Shown one piece after another: positions 1 through 63,364 of a stretch of DNA of 64,000 nt (positions are counted from its first letter, which is position 1; each line of letters begins with the position of its first letter). The stretch lies in contig NC_059439.1 in the NCBI RefSeq assembly GCF_021028975.2, positions 5,952,001 to 6,016,000 on the forward strand. Reading direction: 5' to 3'. The position numbers and the translations under genes are program-made. Under the pieces are notes generated by a model that saw nothing but the letters and a program-made list of their open reading frames with translations, was not told where the DNA came from and searched no databases. Source of the DNA: Sphaerodactylus townsendi. Lineage: Eukaryota.

Positions 1-1015
1 GGTAAGGGCATAGGAAATGAAATCAGGATTCCTGGTAAACACAAATGCTACCCATTGCAAACCATGTCCTGTCTAGCAGCCTTCAGCATACATTTGCTTG
101 ACTTTATTAAGATTATTTCCAGAAGTTCAAGGGCTAGAAATATTTGGTCTTTTGAAAGAAAAAGCTCAGAATATGGAACAGATGCATTTTATGTAAGAAA
201 ATTTAGTGGACTTGCAACAGTGCTGCAAATTAACACCTCCAAGTATGCCAGCAGAATGAAAAGTGTTGAAAGAGTCCACAAGAGCCATCCAGTCCAACAG
301 CCTGCCATGCAGGAACGTACAACAGAAGTACTAGAAACTGCGATTGGTAGCTGATGCTGCCTAGTAAACTCACAGCATCGTAGATTTTAATGTGCTAAGA
401 CTGGAATAATTCCACATAAAGATTGAACTGTGAGAATCATCCTCAAACCTTGTTGGAATTATACCTTCAGTAACATTTTATTGGATGTCCTGGGGTATAT
501 CATGTTCTGTGCTTAGGTAGTTGGTGCCACTGTTCAGTGTGACCCCAGTCATTATAGAAGTACTGCAGAAATGTGATAATTCTAAGCTGTCATATCAGTA
601 TCATCAGAAAGTTAAGAGTGAAAATGGCTTAAAGTACAAATAAGTTCGGTAAGTAGTCCATGCTTTTGGCAGTCCAAGTAGTCCATGTTTCTGACAGTCC
701 AGAGGGCAATAGCTGACTTGAATGTTCTAATGAATTCTTTTCAACTACCCTTTTAATGAATGTGGCTGGTACCATGGTAGTTCCTTTCCCTGATCCTAAA
801 ACAGCAGTGCCTACCAGTGTGTTTCCTGGCAGCCATTTACTTGAGTCTTGAGTGAAAATCTAAAGCATCTTGAACAGCAAAGAAAAATGTTCAAGTTGTG
901 GCCTACCATCTGACTGACTAGCACAACAACAAACTCATTCCAAATAGCCATTCCACAAACATCCATGTGCCATCTGATTAGCCACAGTCAGGATTTCCTT
1001 ACATCTCTGGACTTG

Positions 1016-1312
1016 GAAGAAGAGAAGAAGAGTTTTGAATTTATACCCCTCTTTTTTCAACTCTAAGAAGTCTCAAAGTGGATTACAAATGTCATCCCTT
1101 CCTCTCCCCACAGCACACACCTGGTGAGGTAGGTGGGGCTAAGAGAGTTCTGTGAGAACTGTGACTAGCCCAAGGTCAGCCAGCAGGCTCATGCAGAGGA
1201 GTGGGAAAACACACCCACTTTACCAGATAAGAGTCTGTTGCTTATATGGAGGAGTGGGGAATCAAAACTGGTTCCCCAGATTAGAGTTCACCACTCTTCA
1301 TCGCTACACCAT
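1016..1312 (-). mobile_element. tRNA-derived CORE-type SINE (Squam3-like)
   Basis: tRNA-like head (tggtgtagcg...gtttgattcccc on minus), gtgaccttgggc core and (ctt)n-like tail. Similar copies elsewhere in the window; mirror copy at about 16985-17320. Confidence 0.8.
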
Positions 1313-1344
1313 ATTCAATATGCATAAAAGCCAGGAAGATTTTT

Positions 1345-2330
1345 AGCCTACCATTTAAGAAAGGAAATAAAGGACAATTAATTAACTAAAGAAGAATGGC
1401 AAAACTACCTACATAAGAGGAAGGAATCCAAGATCAATTTGCCCAATTTTTTTCTGAGTTGTATTGTCAAAAAGACGTCAACACAGTGACTCTAAATCCG
1501 TGGTGGCGAACCTTTGGCACTCCAGATGTTATAGACTACAATTCCCATCAGCCGCTGCCAGCATGGCCAATTGGCCATGCTGGAAGGGGCTGATGGGAGT
1601 TGTAGTCCATAACATCTGGAGTGCCAAAGGTTCGCCACCACTGCTCTAAATGAATACATTAAAAAGCTTTCACTTGAGAAATTCACTACAAACCATCATG
1701 AAATATGAAATTAGAATATCTCAATTCAGGAGTTGTCATAGGGCTATCAAAGAACCAAAAAGCCCCAGGGTCAGATAGATCCACGGCAGAATGCTATAAA
1801 AGCATGGAGGAGCTGATAAGCCTAATACTACTTGAAGTGATGAATACCATCAACTCCCCTGACACTTTACCATCTTCATGACAAGAAGGACGTAAAATCC
1901 TGATCCATAAAGAAGGAAATGACCCAGAGTTAACAGCAGTCATATAAGCCCTCTGAATGTGGACTACAAACTTTTAACATCAATAATGACAGTTGGACTG
2001 AGAAGATGTACTGACAAATTAATTCATAAAAGCCAAACTGGATTTATTCCCCAAAGATATATGAAACACAGTGTACGATTTGTTATTAATGCCCTTTAAT
2101 GTGTTAAATGAAGGAAAATCAAAGTTGCTTTTATTTTCTTGGATGCTGAGAAAGCTGTGGATAATATTTCTTGGGACTGTGTTGAAAACATTAGAACATT
2201 TAAAATGTAGCTACAGATTTCACAATTGGATTTGTACATGTACCAAACGAGCCAGACTATTAATAAATGGTCTTCTTCCTGAAGAACTGCAAATTGAAAA
2301 AGGTATGCAACAAAGATGTTCTCTGTGCTC
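1345..2330 (+). mobile_element. Degraded L1/Tx1-like LINE ORF2 (RT) fragment
   Basis: Frameshifted motifs KAPG.D, ILIHKEGNDP, LNVDYKLLTSI, QTGFIPQR and GMQQRCSL (GxRQGCPLS-like). Mirror copy at about 15870-16930. Confidence 0.75.
1498..1643. mobile_element. Palindromic hAT MITE
   Basis: Near-perfect hairpin element flanked by an exact 8-bp TSD ctctaaat (1490-1497 and 1644-1651). Confidence 0.9.
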
Positions 2331-3139
2331 TAGGCAGGCAGGAGCTAGAGTGTGGCCAGACAGGCTGGAGTCAAGATGAACAGCATGTGAGGTGCAGTCA
2401 TAACCAGTCCAGAGTCAGGACAGGCAGAAAGCAAAGCCATAGTCAATTCAGTCGAGGATCAGGGAAGGCAACGGCATGGTCAAAGGTAGAGTCAAGGCAC
2501 AGGCAGGAGATCGGACAGCCTTCTCTTCATTTTTGATATGAGATCAGGGTTGCTGTTTTTTTAAACAAAAAAACATACTCAGGATTTACCTCAACGACCT
2601 GTAGTTTGACGCCTAGAAACGGAACGTGTTTTCCTAGTGCTTGCTAAGATTCTCCTGTGCCTACTCCAAATACCATATAATTACGAAACTGAGCATAGAG
2701 ATATACTCCTTCACTCAGTTTACCATTTTCTTTGTACACCAGGCTTGCAAGTTATACCAGTTTTTTTCCCTTACCACTCCTGGCTAAATGTCAGCAGTTC
2801 CTCTAGTGTGGCTTGTGTGTATGTACCAGTGAGCAGCAGCAATCACCTGCTTAAATGTAAATGGTGGTTTCTTATGTTCGGAAAGAGTTACTGGGAGCTG
2901 GTAAGACAAGCTTGCCAATCCAGTTAGTTCGGGTTATGGAGATGATAAAATGAAACAATCCTTGTAGATTGACAAAGGTCGCTTCAAATGCTGGAGACAG
3001 ATCATTGGCTGTTAGGTATAGCATCATTTAGGTTGGAAAGTGGCCTCTTGCTTAAACTTGCATGTTTTAATAGTTTGTTTCTGTCTCCTGAATTGCTGAT
3101 GCTGCATCCAAAAAATGTCAAACATTTTTTTTCAACTGT

Positions 3140-3395
3140 ATTGTTGGAGACTTTCGTGGCTGACATTAGCTGGCTGTTGTGGGTTTTCCAGGCTGTGTGG
3201 CTATGGCCTACTAGGTTTTTGCTCCTAGTGTTTCACCCGCTTCTATGGCTGGCGTCTTAAGATATCTGTTATGGTAAGGTGTGTTTCTGTCCATGGCACG
3301 TTGTGGAGAATGGCGCAGCCATAGATGTGGGTGAAACTTTAAGAGCAAAAATTAGCAGGTCATGGCCACACAGCCCAGAAAACCGACAACAGCCA
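3140..3395. mobile_element. Penelope-like terminal repeats in fold-back arrangement, degenerate hammerhead motifs
   Basis: Inverted pair related to the 37340 element. Minus-strand core is mutated (CTTAAGA...GAAA). Mirror copy at about 14775-15030. Confidence 0.7.
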
Positions 3396-5045
3396 ATTTT
3401 TTCCAGCTTTCCCCTCTGCTGTAGTAAACAAGTTCTGAGTTCTTTGGCTTCTTGAACTTTAGCCTACTTTCCAGTGTAGAGTAGAAGATAAAGGGGTATT
3501 CTGGTTTGGGGTTGGGAGATCTATGTAGCTATGAAGCAAACTGTTCTAGCCCTGAGCTATCATACTGTGTCAGCTGAATATCACAGGGTTCTCACAGGGT
3601 TCTTGGGAGGATTAGATAAGTGTACATTGTCACCATCCACAGCCCTTGAGGGGGGAAAAATAAGAATTTCTTTTCAGATGTCTCCGTTAGTGGAAGTTTA
3701 TTAATCAGGTAGCTGAATGGGAAATGGGGAGCAGTCTGGGAAACCCCAGTCTGTTTGGCTGAGGATCTTAATGTATATGTTGCCCGTTTTTGTGCTTCTA
3801 ATTCATTAAAAAAATAGACACCACCTGTGTTTTTGCATTCTCTTAAAAATAGATGCAAGTTTTGTAGTCTTTGGTGAACCGACTTCAGGTTTTATTTCTT
3901 GTGACATTTTCCTTCTCCAGGGAGAGGGAAACCACATGGCTTCATGTGTGGGGTTATTCCGCAGGGTGGTATCCTGACCCTTTCCCCTGCCTCAGATTCT
4001 TCACCCTGATTTGTCTTGCCAAGAATGCAAGAAGAGATGTAGGGATGGTGCCTTCATTGGCTCTTCACACTGTTCACTTTGCACTATGTGTTGTTATTAA
4101 GGAATAAACCAACTGTGCTTAGCTACAATATGAGGTAGATTAGGATACTTTTATTTACCTTTACCCTGTTGAGAGGAACTTAGTTGTAGCAAGTTTCTCT
4201 TTTAAAAAAAACTATCGTGATTTAACATGAAATCAGAAATTAAGGCAAATGCATCATATCTGAAAATGAGTTATGACTTCATCGAACTTTTGAGAACCAC
4301 CTTTTCTTTGTAAAGAAAGGACCGTGAGGAAAAAGATCTTCATGAGTCATTGCACAGCACGATAGAAGTGTGCTGTGAGCAACTACCATGATGGACTAGG
4401 ATTTGAGGGACCCTAGTTCAAATTTCCATTTTGCCATGCTGTTCACCAGGTACTTAAGGCCAGTCACTCTCAGTCTAACCTATCTCGCAGGTTTATAAAG
4501 AGGATAATAAAATAATCCAGGAAGAACTATGTATGTCATTCTGAGCCCTGTACAGTAAGGGCAGAATAAAAATGTCCTAGATATGTGACTTGATATCATA
4601 ATGCTTTATGTTAGGCTTGATGATAGTGAGAGCCAAGGACTGGCCCAAGCTCTTCACCCACTGGTTCTGACCCTTTTACTCTTTATCTGCCAAGTACTTA
4701 CCATCAGTCCCTGCTTTTGATTGAGATTATTTACTTTTGTGGGTCGTGGTAGGGTGGCCAAAACAGAAAGGATCCCTGGGAACAAGGAATCCCTTTTAGT
4801 GTTGATTCAGCTTAGTCCTATCTACACAAGTATACTTCTTGTCATGGCTGTTTATTATAAAAGAGACACTATCTGGAGTCATGACCATTAAGCTATCTAA
4901 AAATAGGCAATCTAGGGGGTATTGTTTTCTGAAATAGTAACATGGTTGTCTTAAATATTTAAGGGGTTTATAATGTAGCCTCTAAGATTATATGTAGGCT
5001 GTTAAGTTATAAATACTTTTCAAAATAACTACAATCCTTCCTTTA

Positions 5046-5574
5046 CAATTATCCCTTCCACATCACTGGGGTTAGGGGCACAGTGCACCCTGCAATCTGG
5101 AAATCTGCATAAAATATTTTGGCCCTCCCTTCGTACTAGAACAGGAGTCTGCAAACTGTGGCCCCCCAGATGTTCATGGACTACAATTCCCATCAGCCCC
5201 TGCCAGCATGGCCAAGTGACCTTGCTGGCAGGGGCTGATGGGGATTGTAATCCATGAACATCTGGAGAGCCGCAGTTTGTAGACCCCTGTACTAAAGAAT
5301 AAGTTTGAATTTTTTCTTTTCTTTTAACTTTAAAAAAGAAATTGTGTATATTCATGGTATTAAAAGATCAAATATATTGACATTTGCTATACATACACTA
5401 TACATACATGTTATGCATTTCTGAGTTTCTAAACTTTTTCTGTGTCGTCTGCTGGCCCTCACATGTCATCTGCAGCTTCCGCAAAACTCCCCCCAAAATC
5501 CCATTTAATTTCTTATGCTGACCCGCAATATATCAAAACCACAATGGGGAAAGTTACAGTGTGAAGGATAACTG
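5046..5574. mobile_element. Tc1/mariner (Tigger-like) non-autonomous element with nested hAT MITE (5142-5289)
   Basis: TA|caattatcccttccac ... gtgaaggataactg|TA terminal inverted repeats. The inner palindromic MITE has an imperfect 8-bp TSD. Confidence 0.75.
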
Positions 5575-6074
5575 TACTTAGGAAGTACCCAGTAGGTGTG
5601 ACACATTTCAATATTTAAAAAAAAAACATTTACACTGTAAGGCTTTTTCCCTATCACTGGGGATTTGATTCAGATTACTAATTTAATTCACGTTGACTTA
5701 AATCAGTCCACTGTGCTTTGAACCAAATGTTGCTGCTCAGATACAAAACATGCAGGTCTGTTCTTGGCATAGTCAAGTTTCTGCCTGGGTTACAGTCCCA
5801 ACAAACTGCTGACCTGCTGTTGGAAGAAACAGTTGGGATAGCCCTAAAGGTTTCTTGTGTAATCCAACTGTATACTCAGAGCTGCGGTTTATTTTTCTTT
5901 GAGCCTTTCTAAAAAACTTCTGTGCTATCAGAAAAATGCTGGTATTGAAACATATCAGGTACTCTTAAAATAAAATACATATGGTAGGGGGGTTATCCCA
6001 TTTTATCCCACAACTGTGAGATTGGCTGGACTGAGAGTAAGGATTTGATCACAGCCCCCCCCCCCCCTTGCATA

Positions 6075-6362
6075 GGCAGCAGTGTCATAGTGATTAAGAT
6101 CAGGTGTAGTCTAATCTGGAGGAACTGGGCTTGATTCCCCGCTCTGCCGCTTGAGCTGAGGAAGCTTATCTGAGGAATTAGCCTGTGCACTCCAACACAT
6201 GCCAGCTGGGTGACCTTGGGCTAGTCAACAGTTCTTTGGCGCTCTCTCAGCCCCACCTACCTCACAGGGTGTTTGTTGTGAGGGGGGGAAAGGAGTTTGT
6301 AAGCCCCTTTGAGCCTCCTTACAGGACAGAAAGGGGGGGATATAAATCCAACTCTTCCTCTT
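6075..6362 (+). mobile_element. Squam3-like SINE
   Basis: tRNA-like head, CORE segment gccagctgggtgaccttgggc and tail ggatataaatccaactcttc. Confidence 0.8.
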
Positions 6363-6627
6363 GTCCACATCCAGTACTTTCCCTGCGGCACTACATTTAC
6401 TCTTGTAGACATCCTTCACAATAGCAAGACAGTTGGTTTGACAAGCTGAGTACTGGAGACTTCATGAGAGAGTTGGCTTTAGAAAGGGGCCTCCTATTAA
6501 GCTAACATGCAGAGGAGAGGTTAGGAAGCAGGATCGCGGTTACAAAATCCTATGCCACAGTACATTGTTTAGCCATGAAGGTGTGTGTCTTTTTAAAAAA
6601 AAACCTGTGCAGCAACCAATTGCCCTG

Positions 6628-6930
6628 ACTTGCATAGCCCCAGGCTAGCCTAATTTCATCAGATCTCAGAAACTCAGCATGGTTGGCCCTGACTAGTAGT
6701 TGGAGGGGAGATTACCAAGAGATACTGGGGTCATGATGCAGAGGCAGACAATGGCACCTCTGAGCATCTCTTGAAAACCCTGTGCCAAGCAGGGTTCTGC
6801 AACCTGCGGCCAATTGGCCATGCTGGCAGGGGCTGATGGGAATTGTAGTTCATGAACATCTGGAGAGCCGCAGGTTGCAGAACCCTGCCCTGTGGGGTCA
6901 CTGTAAGCCAGCTGTGACTTAACAGCAAGA
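6628..6930 (+). mobile_element. 5S rRNA-derived SINE with nested partial hAT MITE (about 6790-6887)
   Basis: Degenerate 5S internal-promoter region (gatctcagaaactcagcatggttggccctgactagtagttggaggggaga) followed by a Sauria-like body. Confidence 0.65.
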
Positions 6931-7654
6931 AGAAGGACATCTCTTCCCTTCTCCCGACAACTACGAGTTGCACATTCAGGCTTTGCCAAACTCGGCTTTT
7001 GAGAACAAATAAGTTCAAGTAATAATTCAAGTAATAATTTACAAGTAATAATTCTGCGAAGTCGGAGCTTTCTGGTGTGTGCGCTGTGAACATTCATTAA
7101 TGCAGCTTGGCAGGGCAGCCTTTGAAAGAGAGCTTTATCAAGAGGGCCTTTTTGTAAATGGGCATCAGTTTCTGCCAGACAAAGGCGGGTATGTGTTCAC
7201 ACAGTGGTGCTGTGTTAAGTTCTTGTTCCTTTGTTCCAAGGAAGGTCTTGATGTCTCATGTATGCGGGTGTTGAGTGAAAAGCGTTATTTTTCTCCTGTT
7301 CAATTGTGGTAGCATGGACGACGGGTGGCTTCTAATTGAGGAGACTTTGCAGTGGGATTTCTCTGTTGCTCCTGACACTGAAGGCCTGTTTGCCCCCTTC
7401 TGCAGCTACTTCATCATGTACTAGAAACGCCAGCAGAAAGAGAAGGGCAGAATTAGGAGTACCATGTCAACATGGTTCTATAGAGGGATGGACACAAGAC
7501 AGTTTTATTCAGGTCAATTTCATCTGGGTTAAGCAATCTACCCCATTTGCTGCTCCTTGAGCTAGGTACAGTGTGGAGGGAAGGAGTTAATGTGACACCA
7601 CCACCCCCACCCCCACGGGTTCAGAACTCCACAAGAAATGTTTGGCTGTCTTTA

Positions 7655-7832
7655 GCTACACATGAAGCCAGCTGGGTGACCTTGGGCCAGTCATCATTCT
7701 TTGGAACTCTCTCAGCCCCTCCTACCTCATGAGGTGTCTGTTATAGGGAGAGGAAGGGAAAAGAGTTTATAAGCCACATTGAGTCTCCTTACAAGAGTGA
7801 AAGGGGGGGTATATATCCAAACTTTCTTCTCT
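7655..7832 (+). mobile_element. 5'-truncated Squam3-like SINE
   Basis: CORE and 3' tail similar to the other copies. Confidence 0.7.
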
Positions 7833-8379
7833 TTGTTACATATCTATGAGCAAGGCAACATCTCAAGTTGTAGATCTGGCAAGCTGATTGCTTGAGAAGA
7901 ATTATTTCTCTTTCCAAGGGAATAGCTAATTTTAATCTGTGGTATCAGAGAATCTACAGATAAGCCTGTGTCTTAACATTTTATTTAGCACCAGGAACAT
8001 GCTAGATTCTATCTCCAGCATAGACATAGCAACTACAGCATTGTACTTGTTATCAAAGAGAGAGACCTAGTTCTTTCTAAGGTGGCAAAGCATTGTTTGG
8101 GCTATACCATTTAAGCTGAGGGCTCACGTGATAGAAAGAATTCCCTCCACATATGAAACAAACAATCTGGGCGAAAAGTTCTAGACCGCCCTTTTTATTG
8201 ACTTGCTAGTTTTTTCGTAGGCTGAGTTTTTCATTTCCACAGAAAAACGTACAGTCAGGCGTGCCCCTTGCCTGCAGTCTGAAATTATATACCTAGGATT
8301 GAGATTTTTGCCACTTCAGTGAGACCTAGGCCAGAGAGACATGACAAATGCAGCAGGGCAAGTGAATATTCAGTCAAAG

Positions 8380-8686
8380 GCAGGGGTTTTGAACTCATTT
8401 GTTACGAAAGCTGGATATGACACAAATGTAATTTGGTTGGGGCAACCGTGTGTGTGGTGTGTGTGCCTGCCTGCCTGCCTGCCTAGCTAGCCCCAGAATG
8501 GCACTGGGGCAGGTGCCTGGACTGGCAAGCCCACAGCGGAGTGGGCTGACTGTCTTGAGAGGACTTATCAGGCAAGCAAGCCAGCAAGCAAGGGAGGGGG
8601 GGGGGTTGCTTCAGCTGGCTTGTGGGCCTGAAAAGCTCCCTTAAGGACCCAGAGTCCACCTCTGAACCACACGTTTGACACCCCTG
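8380..8686. mobile_element. hAT non-autonomous element
   Basis: Termini caggggttttgaac ... gtttgacacccctg. Confidence 0.6.
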
Positions 8687-11287
8687 GTCTAAGTGGTTGG
8701 GGGGATTCAGGTATTTAGTCTCCCTTTCTGGACCACTGGCTCAAGGAAGGCTTTGAAGGATAACTATTTTTAAAGAAGAGATTAAAAGAACAGAGGGTGG
8801 CCAGATGGCTCAGAATGGGGATCTGGTTCAAGGCAGAGGCATGAAATGAAACAGTTCACTAGCTGTATAAGCCACCAGGCTGCAGTAATAAGAACCAAAT
8901 ATCAAGAAAACTGGTGCCAACAGAAACAACACAGCACACCAAGAGCTGGGCCATCTGCAGGCATAACGCTTGGGCGTGCTTTGTTTTCCTCAGCCAGAGT
9001 TCATCATCAGATCTGAATACATAAACAGTGACAAATCAGGATCTAAGCTGGATTGCAAACCGTGGTTTGTGTTAACCACAGTTAAGCATTATCTGTGTGA
9101 CAGTGTGCCATGGTTAAGACAGTTCATTTCTCTAATCCATCCTTATGCAAAGTGTTAAATAAGGAGAGAGCTTTACATTGGCCAATCTGTCCATCTTTAG
9201 GATGTTGAAGAATAACATAGCAAGTCTACTGTCATCTGCTACCATTAATTGATAGAGGAGAGGGAAGAGACCAAAATCAATGGAAAGGGTGCACTTTTAC
9301 CTCCTCCCTATTAATTTGATTGGCACCTGGGAACTGAGGTTGAAAGGGACTGCTGGTGGAGGAAAACCCAGCAGAGATCAGCGTCCATCAGCCCCTTCCT
9401 TCCTTTTTCTTTTTTAGGGAATCCAGACAATTAAGCAGTTTTTGTTATATGGAGAAAATACACTCCAGTACAGAAGCTTTATATGCAAACCTGCCCACCA
9501 TGTATACCAGTTTTTTTTTTGAAGTAACAGATTATGCCAGGACAATTCAGAATTTATGCTCAGGATCAGCGTAAGTGTATGAAGATACCCTAAATCAGCA
9601 AGGCACCTACCTCAACAATCTGGAAACACTGGGTTGGATTCAGTCATTAATTTTTTCAAAATTAGCATGCCTAATGCATACAATGTATGTTTTCCACCAA
9701 TGGCTGCTGTAGCAAGATACCAGCACGTTCCTTTCAAGTATTATTTTTTATCTCATGCTTGCTCTTCCCCAGATTGAACCACAGTGGTTACCCTGCAGGC
9801 AGGGAAAATGTAAAACTGGAGAGCTGGAGTGGGCATCAGAAATGAATTATAACAGTTTGAAGCAGTTGTCGATTCAAAAATGGTATGCAAATGTCAAACA
9901 GTAGCAGAAATGTGTTTTATTTTAGAAATAGTGCTTTTTAAAGCACTTGCACTTTCTTACCTGTGTAAAGGGCAGTTGCTTGCAACATGCAACCTTATAC
10001 AAACCCTCTTCTGAAGAATTCTATCTTACTCAAAAGTTTTGAAGCAACCATATTTTATTATTTAAAGCAAATTTGAAGCTGTGAGCCTGAGCAGCAAATG
10101 TAACGTTTCAGTGTAACACATATAGTGACACATTGAAGACTCCCCTTTCCAATTGTAGTTCCCTTACACTGCCTGAAGAGCCATTTTCAGGCAGTGTATA
10201 ATTTGTTTACTTTATTTATACGCCAACATTTCCCACATTGGGTAGGTGTGCTTTATTTTATCCTCACAACAGCCCTGTGAGGTCAGTTAGGCGTGTGTGA
10301 CCCAGCAAGCTTTCATGGTACAGTGGGTATTCAAAACGGGCATCTCTCAGATCCTAGTTCAGCTCTTTGACTACTGTATCACACTAATTGGGGCATGAAT
10401 ATGGAATGATTCTGGTGTGAGCATCAGTTCCTTGGAATCCCAGCCCAAGTGTTTTATTAGTGTTTTGTTTTTAGTAGCGTGCTTGTGATTTATTTACAGC
10501 GCAGTCCTGAGAAGAGTTGAAACTTTCTACATCTATTGAAGTCAGGGGCTCAAAAGGGTGCGACTGCTTTGGAGTGCGTTATAAGACTCCTGTTGTTTCC
10601 GTTCTGTGCCATAACCATCTACTGAGGAGTTGTAATTTTAACATTGGTAAAATGGCTCAGTCTTCGTGGGCTAATGTTTGAACACACAGGATTTGTGAAA
10701 CATCTCTAACCGCTGCCAGGTTTGGCTTGCAAAACCAAGTAATTAGTGTCAGAGGTACTGTTTAAATATGCATCATTAATCTAGAAAAAGTTAATCCAGA
10801 AAAATAAGGCCCTTTACAAATCATTCGGGACCACAGTTGCAGCTGTAGCTACCTCTGCTCCTCTTTGGTCTCTAGTCATGAATGAAGCCAAAAATATACA
10901 ACCAATAGAGAGAAGGGCCATGAACTTTCCTCAGGACTCTCCTTTGTCCTTTATCTGGATCTCTCAGCACTGTGACCTGGATTATAGCTGGGTGAAATGC
11001 CGTTGATGGCTTAGTAACAATTCCCCCAGATACTGCTGCCGCCTGACATTTGGGCTCAGCAACCTTTGGAAGAAGGGCCGCTTCTTGAGCTAGTGACTAA
11101 TCAGAATGGGGTTGGCTTCTGTACTGTTGCTGCTTGGCTGTTGTGTAGTTAGGTGGGATTTTAAATTGGCTTTGCTTCTAGATGTAAGCTGGAAAGGCCG
11201 TAATGGAGAGGGTCCTCTCTCTCTCTCTCTCTCCACTCCTTGATCCATACTAGAGGAATTCCATAGTGCTAACTGTATTTCTTGTTT

Positions 11288-11568
11288 CAGTGGTGGGATC
11301 CCAAAATTTTAGTAACAGGTTCCCATGGTGGTGGGATTCAAACAGTGGCGTAGCGCCAGTGGGTCTGGGGGCGTGGCCTGGCCAGGAATTCCGGGGGCGT
11401 GGCATTAATAATTTCTCTGTTACTGTAAAAAAAAAGTTCCTAATTTCCAACTGGTATCTTCCTGTCCATAATTTAACCTTATTATAGCAAGTCCTATCGT
11501 CTACTGCCAACAGAAACAACTACTTTTCCTCTAATTGACTGCCTGTCAAATACTTAATACTTTCAAAT
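11288..11568. mobile_element. Left part of a CAGTGGTGGGAT-type hAT element carrying a short CR1 fragment
   Basis: Same terminus as the 60867-61682 element. About 11420-11480 translates on minus to KLWTGRYQLEIRNFFFTV (CR1 ORF2 C-terminus-like). Ends at the Penelope repeat. Confidence 0.6.
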
Positions 11569-11569
11569 A

Positions 11570-11696
11570 GGTTGGGTGCTGTGTGGTTTCCGGGCTGTAT
11601 GGCCGTGTTCTAGCAGCATTCTCTCCTGACGTTTCGCCTGCATCTGTGGCTGGCATCTTCAGAGGATGATCCTCTGAAGATGCCAGCCACAGATGC
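11570..11696. mobile_element. Penelope-like terminal repeat with fold-back, truncated at the inversion junction
   Basis: Same family as 47245-47494. Perfect 28-bp-arm palindrome at 11640-11696. Confidence 0.75.
11624..11666 (-). ncRNA. Minimal type-I hammerhead ribozyme motif (Penelope-type)
   Basis: Minus strand: UCCU CUGAAGA U GCC-AGC-CACAGAU-GC-A-GGC GAAA CG UC^AGGA. Stem I UCCU/AGGA, full CUGANGA and GAAA core, stem II, palindromic ACGU helix III, GUC cleavage triplet. Expression and activity are not shown. Confidence 0.8.
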
Positions 11697-14600
11697 TAAA
11701 CAATGTACTGTGGCATGGGATTTTGTGGCTTGATCCTGCTTCCTAACCTCTCCTCTGGTAGCTTAATGGGAGGCCGCACAAAGCTGACTCTCATGAAGTC
11801 TCAATTACTCAGCTTGGTCAAATAACTGTACTTGCTATTGTGAAGGATGTCTACAAGAGTAAATGTAGTGCATGAGAGAAGTACTGGATGTGGACAAGAG
11901 GAAGAGTTGGTTATATCCCATCTGTCCTGTAAGAGGGGCTCAAAGGGGCTTACAAAACTCTTCCCCCTCACAACAAACACCTGTGAGGTGGGTGGGGCTG
12001 AGAGCCAAGGGAACTGTTGACTAGCCAAGGTCACCCAGCTGGCATGTGTTGGGTCGTTAATTCCTCAGATAAGCTTCCCTCAGCTCAAGTGGAAGCGGGG
12101 GAATCAAGCCCAGTTCCTCAGATTAGACTGCGCCTGATCTTAATCACTGCCAGCACTGCCTATGCAGGGGGCTGTGATCAAATCCTTACTCTCAGTCCAG
12201 CCAATCTCACGGTTGTGGGATGGAAATGGGATAACCTACCATATGTATTTTATTTTAAGAGTACCTGATATGTTTCAATACCAGCATTTTTCTGATAGCA
12301 CAGAAGTTTTTTAGAAAGGCTCAAAGAAAAATAAACCGCAGCTCTGAGTATACAGTTGGATTACACAAGAAACCTTTAGGGCTATCCCAACTGTTTCTTC
12401 CAACAGCAGGTCAGCAGTTTGTTGGGACTGTAACCCAGGCAGAAACTTGACTATGCCAAGAACAGACCTGCATGTTTTGTATCTGAGCAGCAACATTTGG
12501 TTCAAAGCACAGTGGACTGATTTAAGTCAACGTGAATTAAATTAGTAATCTGAATCAAATCTGACCAAGGAAAAAAAGCTGATGTAAATGTTTTTTTTTT
12601 AAATATTGAAATGTGTCACACCTACTGGGTACTTCCTAAGTACAGTTATCCTTCACACTGTAACTTTCCCCATTGTGGTTTTGATATGTGCTGGTCCAAC
12701 ATAAAAAAATTAAATGGGATTTTTTGGGGGTTGCAGGAAGCTGCAGATGACATGTGAGGGCCAGTGACAGAAAAGTTTAGAAACTCAGAAATGCATAACA
12801 TGTATGTATAGTGTATGTATAGCAAATGTCAATATATTTGATCTTTAATACCATGAATATACACAATTTCTTTTTTTAAAGTTAAAAGAAAGAAAAATTC
12901 AAAACTTATTCACTTTAGTACAGAGGGTCACCTGAAGCTACGGCTCTCCCAGATGTTCATGGATTACAATCCCCATCAGCCCCTGCCAGCAAGGTCCTTG
13001 GCCATGCTGGCAGGGGGCTGATGAAGTGAATCCATGAACATCTGAGCTCCCACAGTTCTGAACTCCTGTTCTAGCTCTGAGGAGAGACCAAAATATTTTA
13101 TGCAGATTTCCAGATTGCAGGGTGCACTGTGCCCCTAACCCCAGTGATGTGGAAGGGATAATTGTAAAGGAAGGATTGTAGTTATTTTGAAAAGTATTTA
13201 TAACTTAACAGCCTACATATAATCTTAGAGGCTACAGTATAGACCCCTTAACTATTTAAGACAATGTGTTACTATTTCCAGAAAACAATACCCTAGATTG
13301 CCTATTTTTAGATAGCTTAATGGTCATGACTCCAGATAGTGTCTCTTTTATAATAAACAGCCATGACAAGAAGTATACTTGTGTAGATAGGACTAAGCTG
13401 AATCAACACTAAAAGGGATTCCTTGTTCCCAGGGATCCTTTCTGTTTTGGCCACCCTACCACGACCCACAAAAGTAAATAATCTCAATCAAAAGCAGGGA
13501 CTGATGGTAAGTACTTGGCAGATAAAGAGTAAAAGGGTCAGAACCAGTGGGGTGAAGAGCTTGGGCCAGTCCTTGGCTCTCACTATGTCCATTCAGCACT
13601 TAAACATTATGATATCCAAGTCACATATCTAGGACATTTTATTCTGCCCTTACTGTACAGGGCTCAGAATGACATACATAGTTCTTCCTGGATTATTTTA
13701 TTTATCCTCTTGCAAACCTGAGATAGGAGTTAGACTAGTGGCCTTAGAGGTACCTGGTGAACAGCATGGCAAAATGGAAATTTGAACTAGGGTCCCTCAA
13801 ATCCTAGTCCATCATGGTAGTTGCTCACAGCACACTTCTATCGTGCTGTGCAATGACTCATGAAGATCTTTTCCTCACGGTCCTTTCTTTCCAAAGAAAA
13901 GGTGGTTCTCAAAAGTTCGATGAAGTCATAGCTCATTTTCAGATATGATGCATTTGCCTTAATTTCTGATTTCATGTTAAATCCTGATAGTTTTTTTTAA
14001 AGAGAAACTTACTACAATAAGTTCCTCTCAACAGGGTAAAGGTAAAATAAAAATTATCCTAATCCTGTATTGTAGCTAAGCACAGTTGGTTTATTCCTTA
14101 ATAACAACACATGGTGCAAAGTGAACAGTGTGAAAGAGCCAATGAAGGCACCATCCCTACATCTCTTCTTGCATTCTTGGCAAGACAAATCAAATTGAAG
14201 AATGAGGGCGGGGGGGGGGGGGGGGGTCAGGATACCACCTGCGGAATAATACACAGCAAACCATGTGGTTTCCTCTCCCTGGGAAGGAAAATGTCACAAA
14301 GTAACCTGAAGTCGGTTCTTAGAACTACAAAACTTGCATCATTTTAAGAGAATGCAAAACACAGGTGGTGTCTATTTTTTTAATGAATTAGAAGCACAAA
14401 AGCGGGCAACATATACATTAAGATCCTCAGCCAAACAGACTGGGGTTTCCCAGACTGCTCCCATTTCCCATTCAGCTACCTGATTAATAGAAGCACCCAC
14501 TAGCGGAGACATCTGAAAAGAAATTCTTATTTTCCCCCCCTCAAGGGCTGTGGATGGTGACAATGTACACATATCTAATCCTGCAGAACTAGAGACCCTG

Positions 14601-17600
14601 TGTGATGTCCAGCTGACACAGTATGATGATAGCTCAGGGCTAGAGCGTTCTTCATAGCTACATAGATCTCCCAACCCCAAACCAGAATACTATCTTCTAC
14701 TCTACGCACAGAGAAGTAGGCTACAAAGTTCAAGCCAAAGAACTCAGAACTTGTTTACAGCAGAAGCTGGAAAAATTGGCTGTTGTGGGTTTCTGGGCTG
14801 TGTGGCCATGACCTGCTAATTTTGCTCTTAAGTTTCACCCACATCTATGGCTGCATGCATTCTCCCACAGCGATGCCATGGACAGAAACCTGCAACAGAT
14901 ATCTTAGGATACGCCAGCCATAGAAGCGGGTGAAACACTAGGAGCAAAAACCTGGTAGGCCATAGCCACACAGCCTGGAAAACCCACAACAACTTTCAAC
15001 TAATATCAGCCATGAAGTCTCCAAGCAATACAGTTTAGCAGAAAAAAAAAATGTTTGACATTTTTTGGATTTGGCATCATTAATTCAGGAGACAGAAACA
15101 AACTAACAAGAAACATGCAAGTTCAAGCCAGGAGGCCACTTTCCAAGCTGGTGTTATGCTATGCCTAACAGCCATGATCTATCTCCAAACGTTAACGACC
15201 TTTGTCAATCTACAAGGATTGTTTGTTTTATCATCTCCATAACCGAGACTAACTGGGATTGGCAAGCTTGTCTTTTAGCTCCCAGTAACTCTTTCGAACG
15301 TGCAGAAACCACCATTTGCATTTAAGCGGGTGGTTGTACTTGCTGCTAATTAGTACATACACACAAAGCCACACTAGGGAACTGCGTGGCAGCATTTAGC
15401 CCAAGAATTGAGTAAAAGGAGGAGAAAAAAAACTAGAATTGCATCAGCACAAAGCCTGAATTGTACCGAAAGAATGCATGGTAAACTAGGTGAAGGAAGG
15501 GTATATCCTCATATGCTCAGTTTACATTACTATGGCCATTTGGAGTAGACACAGGAGAATCTTAGCGAAACTACTAGGAAAGCCGTTCCGGGACAAGGCG
15601 TCAAAGCTACAGATCGTTAGGGTGAAATCCTATGGGGTATGGCAAAACGGCAACAGCCCTGATCTCATATAAAAGAATTAGAGAAGGCACATCAAGATCT
15701 CCCTGCCTGTGCCTTGGCTCTACCTTTGACCATGCCGTTGCGTTCCCTGAATGTCGACTACGTTGGCTACTGGCTTTGCTTTCTGCCTGTCCTGGCCTGT
15801 CTGGACTGGGTTATGACACCACCCTCACATGCTATTTCATCCTGACTCCAGCCTGTCCCCAGCCTCTAGCTCCTGCCTGCACAAGAGCACCTGAGGAATT
15901 TATCTTTGTTGCCATGCACCTTTTCAATTTGGGTTCTTCAGGAGGAGATACATTTATTAGTCAGTCTGGCATTTGGGTACATGTGCCGATCAATGGTGGC
16001 GATCTGTATGCGAACGATTTTAAATGTTCTAATGTTTCCAAGCTTACACCAGTCCCAGAAATGCCATCAACAGCATGGCATCCAAGAGAATAAAAGCAAA
16101 CTTTGGTTTTCCTTCGGCTTGCTACACTAAGGAGCGTGTGCTAACGAATGTTAATGTGTTCCCTATCTCTTTGGGAATAGAAATCCAGTTTAGCTTTTTT
16201 ATGAATTAATTTGTCAATTACATCTTCCTCAGTCCAACTTGTCATACCATTGATGTTAAAGGGTTTGCTTAGTCCACATTCAGAGGGGGCTTATACTGAC
16301 TGCCTGTTAACTCTTCTGGGTCTATTTTCTTCTTTATGCAGATCCAGGATTTTTACGTCCTTCTTGTCATGAGAAGATGGTAATAAAGTGTCAGGGGAGG
16401 GAGTTGATGGTATTCATCACTTCAAGATGAGTATTAGAGCTTATCAGCTCCTCCATTGCTTTTAGAGTAGCTTATTCTGCCATGGATCTATCTGACCCTG
16501 GGGCTTTTGGTTCTTTGATAGCTACTCTATGACAACTCCTGAATTCGAGATATTCCTAATTTCATGTTTGCATGATGGTTTACAGTGGAAGAATTCTCAG
16601 AGTGAAAGCTTTAAATGTATTCATTTAGAGCGAGTGGTGACGAACCTTTGGCACTCAGATGTTATGGACTACAGCTCCCATCAGCTCTCTTCCAGCATGG
16701 CTATTAATTAGCCATGCTGGCGAGCCGCTGATGATAGAATTATGAGTCTATAACATCTGAGAGCCAAAGAGTTCGCTAACACCTATAGTTCGAGAGTCAC
16801 TGTGTTGACGTCTTTTTTGACAATACAACTCAGAAAAGAATTGGGCAAATTGATCTTGGATTCTTCCTCTTATGGTAGAGTAGTTTTGCCATTTCTTCCT
16901 TTGGATTAATTAATTGTCCTTTATTTCCTTTCTTAAATGCTAGGTACATTCTAAAAATCTTCCTGGCTTTTTATGCATATTGAGATATGGTGTAGCGATG
17001 GCGAAGAGGTGGGTGAACTCTCAATCTGGGGAACTAGAGCTGGTTTGATTCCCCACTCCTCCACATATAAACAACAGACTCTTATCTTCTAGTAAAAGTG
17101 GGTGCAAGTTTGGTCCCACTCCTCTGCAGTGGACGAGCCTGCTGGCTGACCTTTGGGCTGAGTCACAGTTCTCACAGAACTCTCATCTTAGCCCCACCTT
17201 ACCTCACTAGGTGTGTGCTGTGGGGAGGAGGAAGGGACTGACATTTTGTCCAATCAACTTTGAGACTTCTTAGAGTTGAGAAAAGGAGAGGTATAAATTC
17301 AAAACTCTTCACTTCTTCCAAATCCAAGAGATGAAAGGAAATCCTGACTGTGGCTAATCAGATGGCGTAGCATAGGATGTTTGTTGCTTGGGAATGGCCT
17401 TCTTTTGGAATGAGAGTTTGTTGTTGTGCTAGTTCAATTCTGATCCAAGTATTGATCAGATGAAGTAGGCAATACAACTTGAGACATTTTCTTTTACTGC
17501 TATTCAGGTTTGGGATCGCTTTAAGATTTCACTCAAGACTCAAGTGAAATGGCTGCCGGGAAACACACTTGGTATGGGGCACTGCTGTTTTAGCGATCAG

Positions 17601-18535
17601 GGAAAGGAATTCTGTGACCATGGTACTCCAGCCACATTCATTAAAAGGGTAAGCGTTAGCGAAAAGAATTCATTAGAGGAGACATTCAAAGTCAAAGCTA
17701 TTGCCCCTCTGGGACTGTATCAAGGAACAACATGGGACTGCCTATGGACTGCCGAGAAAGCATGGGACTACTTTACAGAACTTATTTGTACTTTGAAGCC
17801 ATTTTCACTCTTTAACTTTCTGGTGATGATACTGATATGACAGCTTGTTAGGAACTGGAGGTATACTGCACATTTTCTGCAGGTACTTCATATAATGACT
17901 GGGGTCCACTACTGAGACAGTGGTAAGTGCACCAACTTCACCCCTAAGCACAGAACATGATATACTAGGACTTAGGACATCCAATAAAGATATTACTAGA
18001 GGGTACTCAAATTCCAACAAGGTTTGAGGATGATTCTCTACCAGTTCCAATCTTTTATGTGAATTAATTCCCAGTCTTAGCACATTAAGAAATTCACTAG
18101 GATGCACAACTGTGAGTTGCAGGGCAGCATCAGGCTACCAATCGCAGTTTCTAGTACTTCTGTTGTAATGCGTTTCCTGCCATGGCAGGCCTGTTGGACT
18201 GGATGGCTCTTTGGTGGACTCTTCGCGCAACACTTTTCAATTTCTGCTGGCATACTTGGAAAGGTGTTAATTTGCCTGTATTGCAGAGTCCACTCAATTT
18301 TCTTTTACATAAAATGCATCTCCTGTTCCCCTTAATTCTGAGCTTTTTTTCTTTCAAAAAAAGACCAAAAATATTTCTAAGCCCGCTTTGAACTTCTGGA
18401 AATAATCTAATTAAAAGTCAAGCAAATGTATGCTGGAAGAGGCTGCTAAGACAACAGGACATGGTTTGGTACCTAATGGGTAGCATTTGTGATTTTACCA
18501 AGGAATCCTGATTCTCTCATTTCCTATGCCCTACC
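11695..18535 (-). repeat. Right arm of large inverted duplication, indel-noisy copy (probable assembly artifact)
   Basis: Mirrors all unique sequence and repeats of 1-6573. Near-identical at about 12250-12560 and increasingly insertion-rich toward 18535. Confidence 0.95.
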
Positions 18536-19084
18536 TACAGATCACTTTGAGTTTATTTAAAACATCTTTATGCACATCAGTCATTCCCACTGCTTGGCAC
18601 TCCCTCAATGCCATTAATAACAAATATTAAGACTTTTATCATTTTGTGGGTTTTTTTCTTTTTGTAAAGCCTCTTTACTTAGGCTCTTTAACTTACCATG
18701 AAGGAAAAAAGCAAATGCTAAAACATTCTCAGAGAAGTAAATAGAGTAAAATGAAGGCAAGAACAATAAAATACCACATTATCAAAATTATAAATACAAA
18801 TAGTGCTTTAAGAAAGAAAGACGTTAAACCAAAAAGCTTAACAGAGGTATTAGACAAAACAGCATCGTGATAGAAGTAGCTACCGAAGTAATGAATACCT
18901 AAATGAACAGCAGTTTTTTTGCTTGGGTGTTGACAGCAAAGCTGGTAGTGATGAAGATAAATATAGAGTTTCCTGGGAAAAGAAATCAAAGGGCCAAGTT
19001 ACACAAATGCCACTAGAAAAGAGAGACAATCTACTACCACCAAAATGACAGGGGAGGGATGAAGCAGGAGGCCTCAGAGGAAGC

Positions 19085-19370
19085 ATCTAGAGTGATTAAG
19101 ATAAGCATACATAGTGAGAAGAGGCCCAGTTCTTTAGATATCCTGGCCCCTAGGGATACTTAGGGCTTTTAGAGAGATCAAATCAGCACTTTGACTCAGC
19201 CCAGGAAATAAACAGGAAGTTGAGGTGCAGAAACATCAAAGTTACTCCTGTCTCTCTTGCAGCTAGAATTTTTGCATCAACTGTGTTTTCCAAAAGCCTT
19301 AAATAGTCAGTCATGCCTACCGAGCACATTACAGTAATCTGATCTGGATGCTTGTATGAAGGCGTAATGT
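19085..19370 (-). mobile_element. Degraded L2 LINE 3' fragment
   Basis: Resembles squamate L2 ORF2 end (agggcttt...atcagcactttgactcagcccaggaaataaacagg). Confidence 0.5.
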
Positions 19371-20952
19371 GTGAGAACAGATCAAACAGCCCCCATCCAA
19401 AGGCACTTCAGGGGATGGGGGTGGGTTGAGCTAGAAAGGGCTTGTGGAAGCTAAGTGAGGAACCTCTCCAGGAGCACCTCTACCTGTTGAGAGGGCAGAC
19501 ACACCAGAAGCGCTGCCAAGTCCTGCTGCTGCAAAACCTCTAGAAGTTTGGAGCTGCAGCATGGGGGAGCTGTCTTCTAGTGTCCTGTTGGGATGCCAGA
19601 ATGGAAATTTGGCTGGCAGAGGAGCAGGCCAGGGAGGTTCTATGGAGCGAGAACCAATGTTAGCCTGGCGGCTCCTTCACTTGGGGTTTTAGGGTCAGTT
19701 ACGCCCCATGGCACCACCAGCTCTCAAACGTCCAGCCACCCCTTTTTGGTGGTGTATATCAACTATACTCTACCAGGACTTTTCAATGGGTGGGGGGGGA
19801 GTTTGAGGGGCTTTCCCGAAGCTCCTGGAAGCAGTGGTAAGTAAGCCCTACTGGAGTGCGCACCACTTTTTCCAGTGCTGTTCTTCATCCTACCACCTTT
19901 GGGTTTTGGATCGGGGACTCTGCAAAATCTCTTCAAAAGAGATTCAATAGAAGCCATCTCAACCCTAAACTGCAAACAGGACCGCCTCCTGTTAGCTACA
20001 CTTACCTGAGTTTTATGGTTAGTGCTAAATAAACTGGGAACCCATGCAGAAAAGTTTTTAAGCCTATCCTTGATGGGTTTCCCCTCCCAAAACAACTCAT
20101 ATTAATTGTCATCTTGTCTAAATTAAGCTCCTGTTTTTAAACTTCTAATCCTTCATTGATCTCAGGCACTGGTGCAGGGATCTCCACTGACTTCCTAGGA
20201 TCTGATGGAAAGAGAGACAGAGCTGCATGTCACCTGTACCTAGATCTTCAGGTATCACCCTGGACAATTCTGCATAAATAAATAGCATGGAAAATAAAAT
20301 GGAGCCCACAGACCTTCTCTACAGGCCAAAGGAGACAACAACAGTTTCACAACCTCTTCAGAACCAAATGAAGACGTTAACAACTGCTCCCCCAGGTCCA
20401 TATCAGCTGTGCAGCCCACAACCCCTGCTGATGGTACTAAAAGCCTCTTGAGAAGTCCAAAGGACCCAGAATTGATATGTTCTCATTAGGTAACTACCAG
20501 ACTACTAACAGAAACAGTAGTGGTCTCCTATTACACTGTTTCAAGTTTGCTTAATTTGATTATCATAAAGAATTCTAATATTATCAAGGATACAAGAGAA
20601 GAACATTAATATTCCTTCAAAGGCTAGAAATCTCTCCCCCGACCCCCACCCATATGCCGTGCCTTTGGAGGAAGCACCCTGCCACTGGCGGAAGAGGCAA
20701 TTCAAAAAGTTTGCAGCAATTTTCAATCTGGCTACATGGAAAGGAAGAGATGAGAATTTTGAGTTGCAGTTGACTGAAGGTGGGTATAACCTCAGGTAAA
20801 GCTGAATGGCTGGCTGTAAGTTGTTATGATGCCTCTTTTAACAGCTTCGCTTCCTTCTGATAGACTCTCCTTATTTTCCTTGCAAACGGATAAAAAAGAC
20901 ACCAGAAATCTCCATGGCTTTCCCCAATCCAACGAAAGCAAAACATTTAGGA

Positions 20953-21100
20953 CAGGGGTAGGGAACCTGCGGCTCTCCAGATGTTCAGGAACTACAATTC
21001 CCATCAGCCTCTGTCAGCCTGGCCAATTGGCCATGCTGGTAGGGGCTGATGGGAATTGTAGTTCCTGAACATCTGGAGAGCCACAGGTTCCCTACCCCTG
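20953..21100. mobile_element. Young palindromic hAT MITE
   Basis: Near-perfect 148-bp palindrome caggggtagggaacc...ggttccctacccctg with TSD atttagga/atttaggg. Confidence 0.9.
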
Positions 21101-21727: not shown

Positions 21728-21789
21728 CGAAGTAGCAGCTCTTTGGGGAGCTTTTTATTGATCGCAGCCTCATCGTTATTTGAGAACAT
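21728..21789 (-). CDS. FBXL20: FBXL20 coding exon 2 (start of F-box)
   Basis: Polypyrimidine tract, then cag|ATG TTC TCA AAT AAC GAT GAG GCT GCG ATC AAT AAA AAG CTC CCC AAA GAG CTG CTA CTT CG|gtaagc = MFSNNDEAAINKKLPKELLLR. 62 nt, phase-0 junction to exon 1, LPKELLLR F-box start. Intron 1 is about 40.4 kb. Confidence 0.95.
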
Positions 21790-52782: not shown

Positions 52783-53474
52783 TTACAGCCTTTAAGAGTA
52801 TTATCCCTATGATGAGTATTATCCCTATCCCTATCCTTATGATGAAATGTTATCCCAAGGTATTTAAATAATTTAACTTGTTCGATGTCAACCCCTTGGA
52901 TGGACCATCTCATGGGTCTGAAGGTGTTAGAAAAAAACCACACTATTTTAGACTTCACAGGGTTAATAACCAACCTTTTGTTTCGACAATATTCATCACA
53001 TTTGATCAGGGAATTTTTAAGACCTGACCTTGTTCTTGATAGCAAAACTGCATCATCGGCATAAAGGAGGATGGACAAAGGAACAGCATTCAGATAGGGC
53101 CAATGAGAGTTGGAATTATTCAAAGTGCAGGCAAGATCGTGCAGAAAAAAGTTGAATAACACAGGTGCTAACACGCATCCCTGCTTTACCCCCTGAGAAA
53201 CCAATATTTTGGGTGTCAGAGGGCCTGATGTTGTACACCTTATCTGACATATGGGATTTCTGTATAGAGACCTAATTAATAAAAGAAGCCTGGGTTTTAT
53301 AGCAAGCTTCTGAATTTAAGCCATAGCAGTGATCGAATCAAAAGCCCCCTTGAGATCAATAAACACTACATATAGGTTGGATTTTCCTTTGTGAAGATAT
53401 TTGATTTCAAGTGCTTCCAGTGTCATGAAGTGGTCCAGGGTGGACTTTCGTTTTGTGAAACCAATCTGCTCTAT
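52783..53474 (-). mobile_element. Internal RT fragment of an RTE-X-like LINE inserted in CR1
   Basis: EQIGF...STLDH, FIDLKGAFDSI, GVKQGCVLAPVLFNFF, LLYADD and FKYLGI; flanked by direct repeat taattaggaaagg (52770-52782 and 53475-53487). Confidence 0.85.
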
Positions 53475-61999: not shown

Positions 62000-62830
62000 C
62001 CCCCAAATGAGGCTGTCAATCCCGCCTTGGGAAATGCCCGGAGATTGCGGGAGGGGCTCAGAGGGGGTGGGATGAGAGCCTCACCTCCCCCCTCCAGCTG
62101 CCGGATCCTGGTGTCTGGATATGAAGATCAGGCGCCACTCCGGGAGAAATCCAGGAACAACCCCCCCCCCCCCTTGTAGGTCGGCCACAAAGCCCCGACC
62201 GACCCGCCCCCCGCTCACCTCAAAGCGGCTCTTGGTCACGCCGTTCATTTCCCTCCTCATGATGGAGGCCCGGCGGCGGGGGTCGACTCGGGTGAGGCCG
62301 GGCCAGGCCAAGCCGGGCCAGGCCTGGCCCCCCCTCGTCCTCCTCCTGGGCGGCGTCAGCAGCGGCTGCAGGCACCCCGGGCAGCCCGCCCCGAGCCCGG
62401 CCTGACGCGGCGGAGACGGGAAGCGGCGACGGCTGCGAGGAGGGCGAAACGGAGGCACCAGCCTTTCCGTCGCCTTTCTGCTCCGCCAGCCCGGGCGGCG
62501 CTGAGGCGGAGGGGCGCCTGAGGTAGGCTCGTGGCCTCCGGACGAGGGACGGAGCGTGGCGGGAAGGGGGGCAACGAAACCCGCTCAAGCCCTCAGCGGC
62601 CACCGCGAGGCCGGCCCGCCTCAACTGCAACTACTTCTTCTTCTCCTTCTTCAACCCAAAACAAAAACACTCGGCACCTGCCAGCAACAGCGCCGCTCAT
62701 TGGTCGAGGAAGGCGCAGGCTGGGGGAGGAGGGAGGGGGCAGGGGTTGCGCACGCGCATGGCCCGAGCAAGGGGGTTGCGCGCGCACCTCAGATGCCCGG
62801 AGAGGTGGCTGTGGGGGGGAACCGGCTCTC
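62000..62830 (-). promoter_or_regulatory. FBXL20: CpG-island promoter and 5' UTR of FBXL20
   Basis: Very GC- and CpG-rich region around exon 1. CCAAT box on the minus strand (ATTGG at 62699-62703), perfect NRF1-type site TGCGCACGCGCA at 62747-62758, and G-rich Sp/KLF-like tracts. Confidence 0.85.
62219..62260 (-). CDS. FBXL20: FBXL20 (F-box/LRR protein 20, SCRAPPER) coding exon 1
   Basis: Minus strand reads ATG AGG AGG GAA ATG AAC GGC GTG ACC AAG AGC CGC TTT GAG|gtgagc = MRREMNGVTKSRFE. This matches the FBXL20 N-terminus as I recall it (MRRDVNGVTKSRFE). 42 nt, canonical GT donor, A at Kozak -3, inside a CpG island. Confidence 0.95.
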
Positions 62831-62839
62831 TTGCAGGTA

Positions 62840-63364
62840 CGGTTGCCACCCTCCAGGTAGAACCTGGAGATCTCCTGGAATTACATATACTGTCCCCCGG
62901 GGGAAATTGCTGCTTTGGAGGCCGGACTATAGGAAGCTGTGGCCTGCTGAGGTCCCTCTGCTCTGAGGTTGCCAACCTCCAAGTAGTATCTGGGATCTCC
63001 TACTTGTCTGAAATGAACTGCCCTGGAGAAAATGGATGCTCTGGAGGGTGGACTCTATGGCATTCTACAGGGATGTCTGCCTCCAGAGGGAACTTGGGGA
63101 TCCCTTGGAATTTCAGCTCACCTCCAGACTATAGGGATCAGTTTCCCTGGAGAAAACGGATGCTTTGGAGGATGGCCTGTATGGCATCGAACCCTGCTGA
63201 GGTCCCTGTCCTCCCCAGGATCCATATCCAAATCTCCAGGCGCTTCCCAACCTGGATCTGGGAACCCTAATACCGTGCTGAGTTCCCTCCCTTCCCCAGA
63301 TCTCACCCTCCTCAAGCTCCACCCCCAAACCTCCAGGAATTTCCCAGCCCATACCTGGCAGCCT
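62840..63364. mobile_element. Non-autonomous DNA-transposon-like repeat (GGTTGCCA termini)
   Basis: Repeated modules ggttgccamcctcca...ccctggagaaaatggatgct...gaggtccct; ends ctggcagcct. Confidence 0.55.

Follow-up and report, generated by a model that had tools for sequence, protein, structure and literature searches.

A probably false inverted duplication in an intron of an FBXL2/FBXL20-type gene in the Sphaerodactylus townsendi assembly

Within the window, i.e. the whole stretch of 64,000 nucleotides that was analysed, the assembly carries a long inverted duplication whose right arm we regard as false and not as a second genomic copy (probability about 0.93). The right arm was probably produced as a noisy re-read of the left arm that filled a gap next to a block of 13.9 kb, comprising arm and spacer, which itself likely stands backwards. 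The first-pass annotation had proposed an unpolished long-read gap fill or a fold-back read next to a mis-oriented contig, and this proposal gained support from three sides: short-read contigs reproduce the left arm exactly and at about the depth of the flanks, the differences in the right arm follow a read-error spectrum, and the target sites of the terminal repeats fit a flipped block. Taken together, the exactness of the left arm, the indel and strand bias and the target sites thus suggest that the block likely stands backwards and that the gap was likely filled by a noisy re-read of the arm. Positions below are those of the window, negative numbers lying upstream of its first base.

The inverted match and its host intron

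Self-BLAST of the window aligned positions 5–6573 with 18532–11695 on the minus strand (85.0% identity over 7033 columns with 327 gap openings, E = 0), and local alignment within the window carried the match from base 1 to 6573 against 18535 to 11695. The inverted duplication of at least 6.5 kb with a 5.1-kb spacer, which had been read from the sequence as running to the window edge, is thus present in the assembly, aligned from base 1, and it is longer than claimed. With upstream DNA added, the self-comparison gave a single long inverted match that extends another 2.35 kb, to position –2355 (contig position 5,949,645) versus 21082. The full match (–2355..6573 vs 21082..11695) is ~86% identical, with arms of ~8.9 kb (left) and ~9.4 kb (right), and the offset from the arm end at 6573 to 11695 amounts to 5,121 bases. 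It includes unique DNA, as had been stated: in a whole-genome search, 5640–6010 matched the two arms only. The divergence is indeed patchy, and the identity noticed at about 12250–12560 corresponds to the longest identical run between the arms, 325 bp at 5662–5986 (partner of ~12240–12560), which lies beside heavy damage. In genome searches, neither arm nor spacer turned up at length anywhere else in the assembly, be it as a third copy or on unplaced sequence, and no N gaps occur in the 204 kb or in the 794 kb around the window. Over these 794 kb, no other long indel-rich pair was present among 98 pairs of at least 400 bp; two short pairs also exceeded a gap share of 0.35 (one of 737 bp at 0.38, the other of 543 bp but with only 4 differences). 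Since only one long pair was seen in 794 kb, we do not claim that artefacts of this kind are frequent in the region.

Exons of an F-box/LRR gene were found on the minus strand on both sides of the feature. The exon 21789–21728 splices in frame (CG before the junction, A after it) to an exon of the same strand that begins at –2688, so that the whole feature lies within one intron. The host gene is of the FBXL2/FBXL20 type and, following the first-pass annotation, presumably FBXL20 rather than FBXL2. A later exon matches FBXL2 in PDB 6O60 (E 7.7e-47), and a short-motif search did not find the first exon. The intron as assembled measures ~24.4 kb; without the right arm it comes to ~15.2 kb, plus an unseen stretch. 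The parts are listed in Table 1.

Table 1 Positions of the parts of the inverted duplication and its surroundings
Feature	Position	Strand	Basis or remark
Left arm, accurate copy	1..6573, starts upstream at ~–2240 (contig position 5,949,760)	+	short-read contigs, alignments
Left-end MITE	–2363..–2221		outer half noisy; flanking 8-mers match 3/8; left arm starts just inside
Spacer, single-copy intronic DNA, natively joined to left arm	6574..11696	+	contig spanning 6573
Palindromic repeat	11574..11696	.	stops 28 bases into its second arm; hairpin centre 11640–11696
Inner junction	11695..11696	.	2 shared bases (GC), right arm next
Right arm, noisy part; left-arm DNA, likely as read once by a long read	11697..20729	-	alignments, error spectrum
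Right arm, outer clean part	20730..20952	-	within 261-base run identical to left arm
Intact 148-bp palindromic MITE	20953..21100	.	flanks ATTTAGGA / ATTTAGGG, 7/8 match
F-box exon of host gene (MFSNNDEAAINKKLPKELLLR)	21728..21789	-	splices in frame to exon from –2688

Differences between the arms and evidence from short-read contigs

The difference spectrum was determined with –2237..6573 (left) as reference versus 20969..11695 (right). Of the 881 differences, 334 were substitutions; relative to the left arm, the right arm had 405 insertions and 142 deletions. Small indels therefore dominate the divergence, as had been noticed, with 62% of events (547/881, 0.62) compared with 282/2106 in 69 natural repeat pairs of 80–92% identity, where the maximum was 0.31. 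The arms differ by ~13%, mostly by indels, unlike the copies of a heterotype (two-allele) false duplication, which are separated by heterozygous alleles. On the + strand of the right arm, A>G exceeded T>C (82 vs 24, p 4e-8) and G>A exceeded C>T (59 vs 34, p 0.007); nine natural repeat pairs were balanced (A/G 163, C/T 147). For all five inner repeats, the left version scored better against other copies. The divergence is thus not substitution-led, not strand-symmetric and not present in both copies, unlike that of a real segmental duplication. The earlier claim that damage is confined to the right arm held for five of the six nested or terminal repeats tested and failed at the outer-end MITE, which is clean on the right (20953–21100) and noisy on the left. 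A 2.7-fold enrichment of C>T/G>A at CpG (9/146 vs 84/3552, p 0.01) leans towards some natural change or methylation-linked miscalls.

The noisy right arm is deletion-leaning by the junction and insertion-heavy from ~15,000 to 20,000, and its spectrum resembles that of a single nanopore-type read. Nanopore reads, in the error profile given in PMC8486125, show an excess of A/G substitutions on the read strand and have deletions as their commonest error. The A/G excess would put the direction of the read from 11697 towards 21000, and the surplus of insertions (405) over deletions (142), unlike the deletion-led nanopore pattern, leaves the sequencing platform uncertain. Noise alone proves nothing, because the second arm of a genuine inverted duplicate can be noisy in nanopore reads too, at least in the cases described in PMC7229812.

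Short-read contigs were aligned to window positions –2999..7000 (termed L015; L015 8685–9018 corresponds to window 5685–6018). Contigs came from four of the 11 listed runs (X6–X9), the runs X2–X5 (share 0.08), X10–X11 (0.00) and X1 (0.52) being left out. The four runs represent three samples of one study: X6 and X7 (= X8) from organism D, and X9 from organism C, which is related. It may be that the assembly was made from sample X6, or from neither of the organism D samples. Depth values throughout refer to contigs rather than reads, and rare variants are lost from contigs of this kind.

Five pieces of X6 in the arm (L015 759–1904, 2026–4049, 4626–4932, 5037–6194 and 6366–8078; 6,348 bases) had 0 other letters and 0 gaps versus the left arm, while X7 and X8 showed 0–1 differences per piece. 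Over four of those X6 spans the arms differ at 47, 250, 218 and 107 places; the contigs match the left arm where the arms differ, so the reads carry left-arm letters. Two spans contain 10 and 12 exact arm-shared runs of at least 31 bases (longest 261 and 258), and the contigs are unbroken there. That right-arm letters are absent from the reads would follow from the left-arm depth and the unbroken contigs. The idea that the left arm was itself deletion-damaged upstream of ~+1500 was rejected, as short-read contigs match the left arm there. The contigs of X9 differed by ~1% from the left arm, chiefly through substitutions (57 places, with 5 non-repeat indels among those listed).

A homozygous duplicate would give about double depth, and any second copy that is real should show up as higher depth or as broken contigs. 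With the left arm aligned alone, arm pieces of X6 had depths of 26–30 (one 15.5) versus 32.2 and 25.6 in the flanks, and those of X7 had 20–25 versus 24.1 and 18.1; in both, arm depth is about that of the flank and a gain by duplication is absent. Depth in the arm was noisy in X8 (36.6–110.4). At L015 8685–9018, which holds the 325-bp identical run, depth was 8.6, 5.25, 16.6 and 3.06 in the four runs and hence not doubled, but this bin was used neither for nor against duplication because the filter omits some records. Moreover, a contig of 335–336 bases crosses the arm/spacer junction at 6573 in X6, X7, X8 and X9 (4/4 runs) and a graph branch is absent, demonstrating that the link between left arm and spacer is native. 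In the spacer, 0.92–0.97 of the sampled words at 7800–11500 were present in three runs, and 10600–11300 has one match in the genome. It is this depth and contig continuity, not the noise, on which the exclusion of a real copy rests.

Junctions, proposed route and alternative explanations

At 11695 the spacer stops 28 bases into the second arm of the palindromic repeat, shares GC with the right arm and then switches. The repeat, presumably Penelope-like, has 255 + 249 strand matches genome-wide (reversed control 0), and two intact copies continue ~100 bases beyond the truncation point. Self-BLAST revealed a 57-bp self-palindrome at this inner end, 11640–11696. We considered this hairpin as a scar of fold-back and rejected it, as its centre is family-wide among the matches listed (100 of 504).

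The MITE at the outer end of the right arm is 148 bp long, clean and 93% self-complementary, and would be hAT-like on account of its 8-bp target-site duplication. Comparison of target sites gave 7/8 between arm and downstream flank and 3/8 between upstream flank and arm. Among 22 other full-length MITEs serving as controls, 15 reached at least 7/8 and five scored at most 2/8 (ends extrapolated without indel correction), and unrelated flank pairs reached at least 7/8 in 16/924 cases. The 3/8 at the left junction is thus weak evidence, since 5/22 controls score no better than 2/8. None of the contigs listed for the four runs crosses the left junction, although repeats tend to interrupt contigs in any case. 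Those from upstream end at L015:640, where they have entered the MITE by four bases, and carry 19–21 unfitted letters in X6–X8. The X9 contig begins fitting at L015:781, while its other 114 letters fit nothing there; it is from L015:781 onwards that the sequence of an empty insertion site followed by the downstream flank would agree. Together, these sequence comparisons point to the arm's outer end belonging beside the DNA right of 21100, not beside its assembled left neighbour.

The following route probably explains these observations. The accurate block, ~–2240 to 11696 (13.9 kb), is bounded by hairpin repeats, in which both of its ends fall. Short-read contigs would have broken at these hairpins, and the block would then have been oriented wrongly between the two. 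A gap closer that keeps scaffold orientation may have inserted a read that truly reached the downstream flank and thus re-read the arm. Such a read likely ran in the direction suggested by the A/G excess; possibly it was the latter half of a read that had folded back. Identical patches between the arms may reflect partial polishing. The true order on the + strand would be upstream flank with its own MITE, an unseen stretch, reversed spacer, reversed arm, MITE 20953–21100 and downstream flank. A genome search with MITE end and target site did not find the unseen stretch that the flipped-block model predicts; the same search, meant to locate the partner that the upstream MITE lacks, gave 87 matches, all of them away from the locus, and the one inspected (1/87, on C841) was an independent insertion with its own flanks.

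The duplication would also be false if the animal carried a real heterozygous inversion of at least 14 kb between two young palindromic MITEs and the assembly had stitched both haplotypes, one reading upstream flank, MITE, arm, spacer and the other reversed spacer, reversed arm, MITE, downstream flank. We consider this unlikely. The full-length MITE at the left junction does have non-matching flanks (3/8), as recombination between MITEs would leave, and by eye its noisy half resembles the young subfamily of 20953–21100, of which C841 carries a near-identical copy; moreover, the noisy half-hairpin could come from one read truly crossing the junction, and at least one MITE seems absent from the related organism. 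When the two MITEs were compared as potential hybrids, non-matching flanks were found at the left one alone (3/8, with 5/22 controls at 2/8 or below), while the right one keeps its own flanks (7/8), and the reciprocal junction of a recombination between inverted repeats is not in the assembly. What counts against an inversion is that the left junction is crossed by none of the contigs listed for four runs, even if contigs break at repeats, and that, had such a haplotype existed, reads from the spacer end into the downstream flank would be expected to have closed the right gap without noise. If true, the inversion would be a lizard example, if a modest one, of structural variation driven by MITEs.

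A genuine second arm is less probable still. An inverted duplication that is very young, confined to the assembled animal and represented in its second arm by one hairpin-degraded read appears highly improbable: depth is not raised and the contig is unbroken across 6573 in both organism D samples, and the target site common to the arm's outer end and the downstream flank would be left unexplained. This holds even though the read sets may come from other animals, the two shared bases of the junction lie in a hairpin repeat, as template switching can leave, and nanopore accuracy drops in the second arm of the real inverted duplicates reported in PMC7229812. For an old inverted segmental duplication, diverged by ~14%, one could cite the 86% identity and the mild CpG enrichment. 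It is practically negligible given an indel share of 0.62 with one-strand bias, identical runs of 260–325 bases beside heavy damage, damage confined to one copy, and a related organism (X9) that differs from the left arm mainly by substitutions.

We thus favour the noisy re-read beside a flipped block, which has no biological weight, as the feature is intronic, leaves the flanking exons in order and in frame, and has a second copy that is likely false. What it calls for is a curation flag: ~9 kb of the intron are likely spurious and the 13.9-kb block is likely backwards, so that variant calls or repeat dating at C15:5.95–5.97 Mb would mislead.

Comparison with known artefacts and real inverted duplications

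In our analysis, the feature would work like a homotype false duplication as characterised by Ko et al. 2022 (PMC9516828). It shares with the cases described there that both copies are on the same scaffold, that the copy is about one raw read long and probably made of sequence errors, and that depth is not raised (contig depth in X6 26–30 vs flank 26–32; in X7 20–25 vs 18–24). That description further has haploid-level depth when both copies are in the reference, depth below haploid on the false copy, whose specific k-mers are errors, and discordant read pairs. As for the scaffold or depth gap between copies that it includes, an N gap is absent here, and the left junction is without a spanning contig among those listed. 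The present copy differs in being inverted, in being paired with a likely flipped block and in lacking an N gap. According to the account of TGS-GapCloser drawn on here (PMC7476103), that tool keeps scaffold order and orientation, uses one best read per gap and adds misassemblies. A probable one-read fill with retained orientation, patchy accuracy and no N over 794 kb make our feature similar to such a misassembly, whereas the inverted re-read geometry does not figure in that account.

A fold-back read artefact, as treated in the Breakinator description (PMC12870357), turns to the opposite strand and re-reads itself, and the right arm resembles it in this respect and in its nanopore-like errors. 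The right arm does repeat the locus on its opposite strand. In that description, the turn also lies near the midpoint of the read. The fold-back option of the first-pass annotation did not survive in its strict form, i.e. with a turn within 200 bp: the turn in the assembly is offset, with a restart 5.1 kb away. Finally, real inverted duplications sequenced by nanopore (Spealman et al. 2020, PMC7229812) likewise have a second arm that is of low accuracy from the junction onwards. For these, the cited description leads one to expect raised depth and missed bases, whereas here depth is flat and insertions dominate.

Inverted copy of a host-gene exon

A search around the FBXL2/FBXL20-type host gene revealed a 312-bp inverted copy of its IFSFLD exon, including the donor site and the following intron, at a position about 25 kb past the last exon of the gene. 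The copy and the original shared 88% identity, differing by 18 substitutions and 2 gaps, and a truncated palindromic repeat was found immediately ahead of the copy. Since these differences look natural, the copy is likely a real captured fragment.

Coordinates of the features (negative values lie upstream of the window)
Feature	Window	Scaffold	Orientation
Exon-copy fragment	-58497..-58186	G000:C15 about 5,893,503-5,893,814 (fetched stretch L006)	inverted vs -2687..-2979
Intact palindromic MITE	20953-21100		
Near-identical MITE		G000:C841 about 53,300-53,455 (fetched stretch L018)	
Nested MITE	6790-6887		
2.1-kb pair	-18042..-16082 and -6037..-8123		inverted
543-bp repeats		G000:C15:5,782,014-5,782,555 and 5,787,209-5,787,740 (fetched stretch L071)	direct
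Low-depth segment over longest stretch identical between arms	5685-6018		
CpG-island-like stretch	62001-63000		

Palindromic elements

The contig of X9, the short-read run of organism C, stayed outside the intact MITE and carried 114 other letters instead (at position 781 of L015, a stretch beginning 3,000 bases upstream of the window). Judged from this contig, the element seems to be absent from organism C, and it may be a recent insertion. A second MITE, nearly identical to this one and from its young subfamily, was observed on a different scaffold, 4.7 Mb long, where a perfect 8-bp target-site duplication flanks it. A further MITE, nested in another repeat, exhibited perfect 20-bp terminal inverted repeats, with one arm short by about 50 bases and only partial duplication in its flanks.

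Neighboring repeats, contig depth and base composition

The inverted 2.1-kb pair within the host gene showed 73% identity with substitution-led divergence and probably represents two old LINE copies. The direct repeats, 97.4% identical and spaced by 5.2 kb, could mark the two ends of a young element or reflect a local overlap in the assembly. In all four short-read runs, contig depth was low across the longest segment in which the two arms of the long inverted match are identical, possibly owing to a filter effect. Finally, the CpG-island-like stretch (GC 0.67, CpG observed/expected 0.68) is possibly a promoter.
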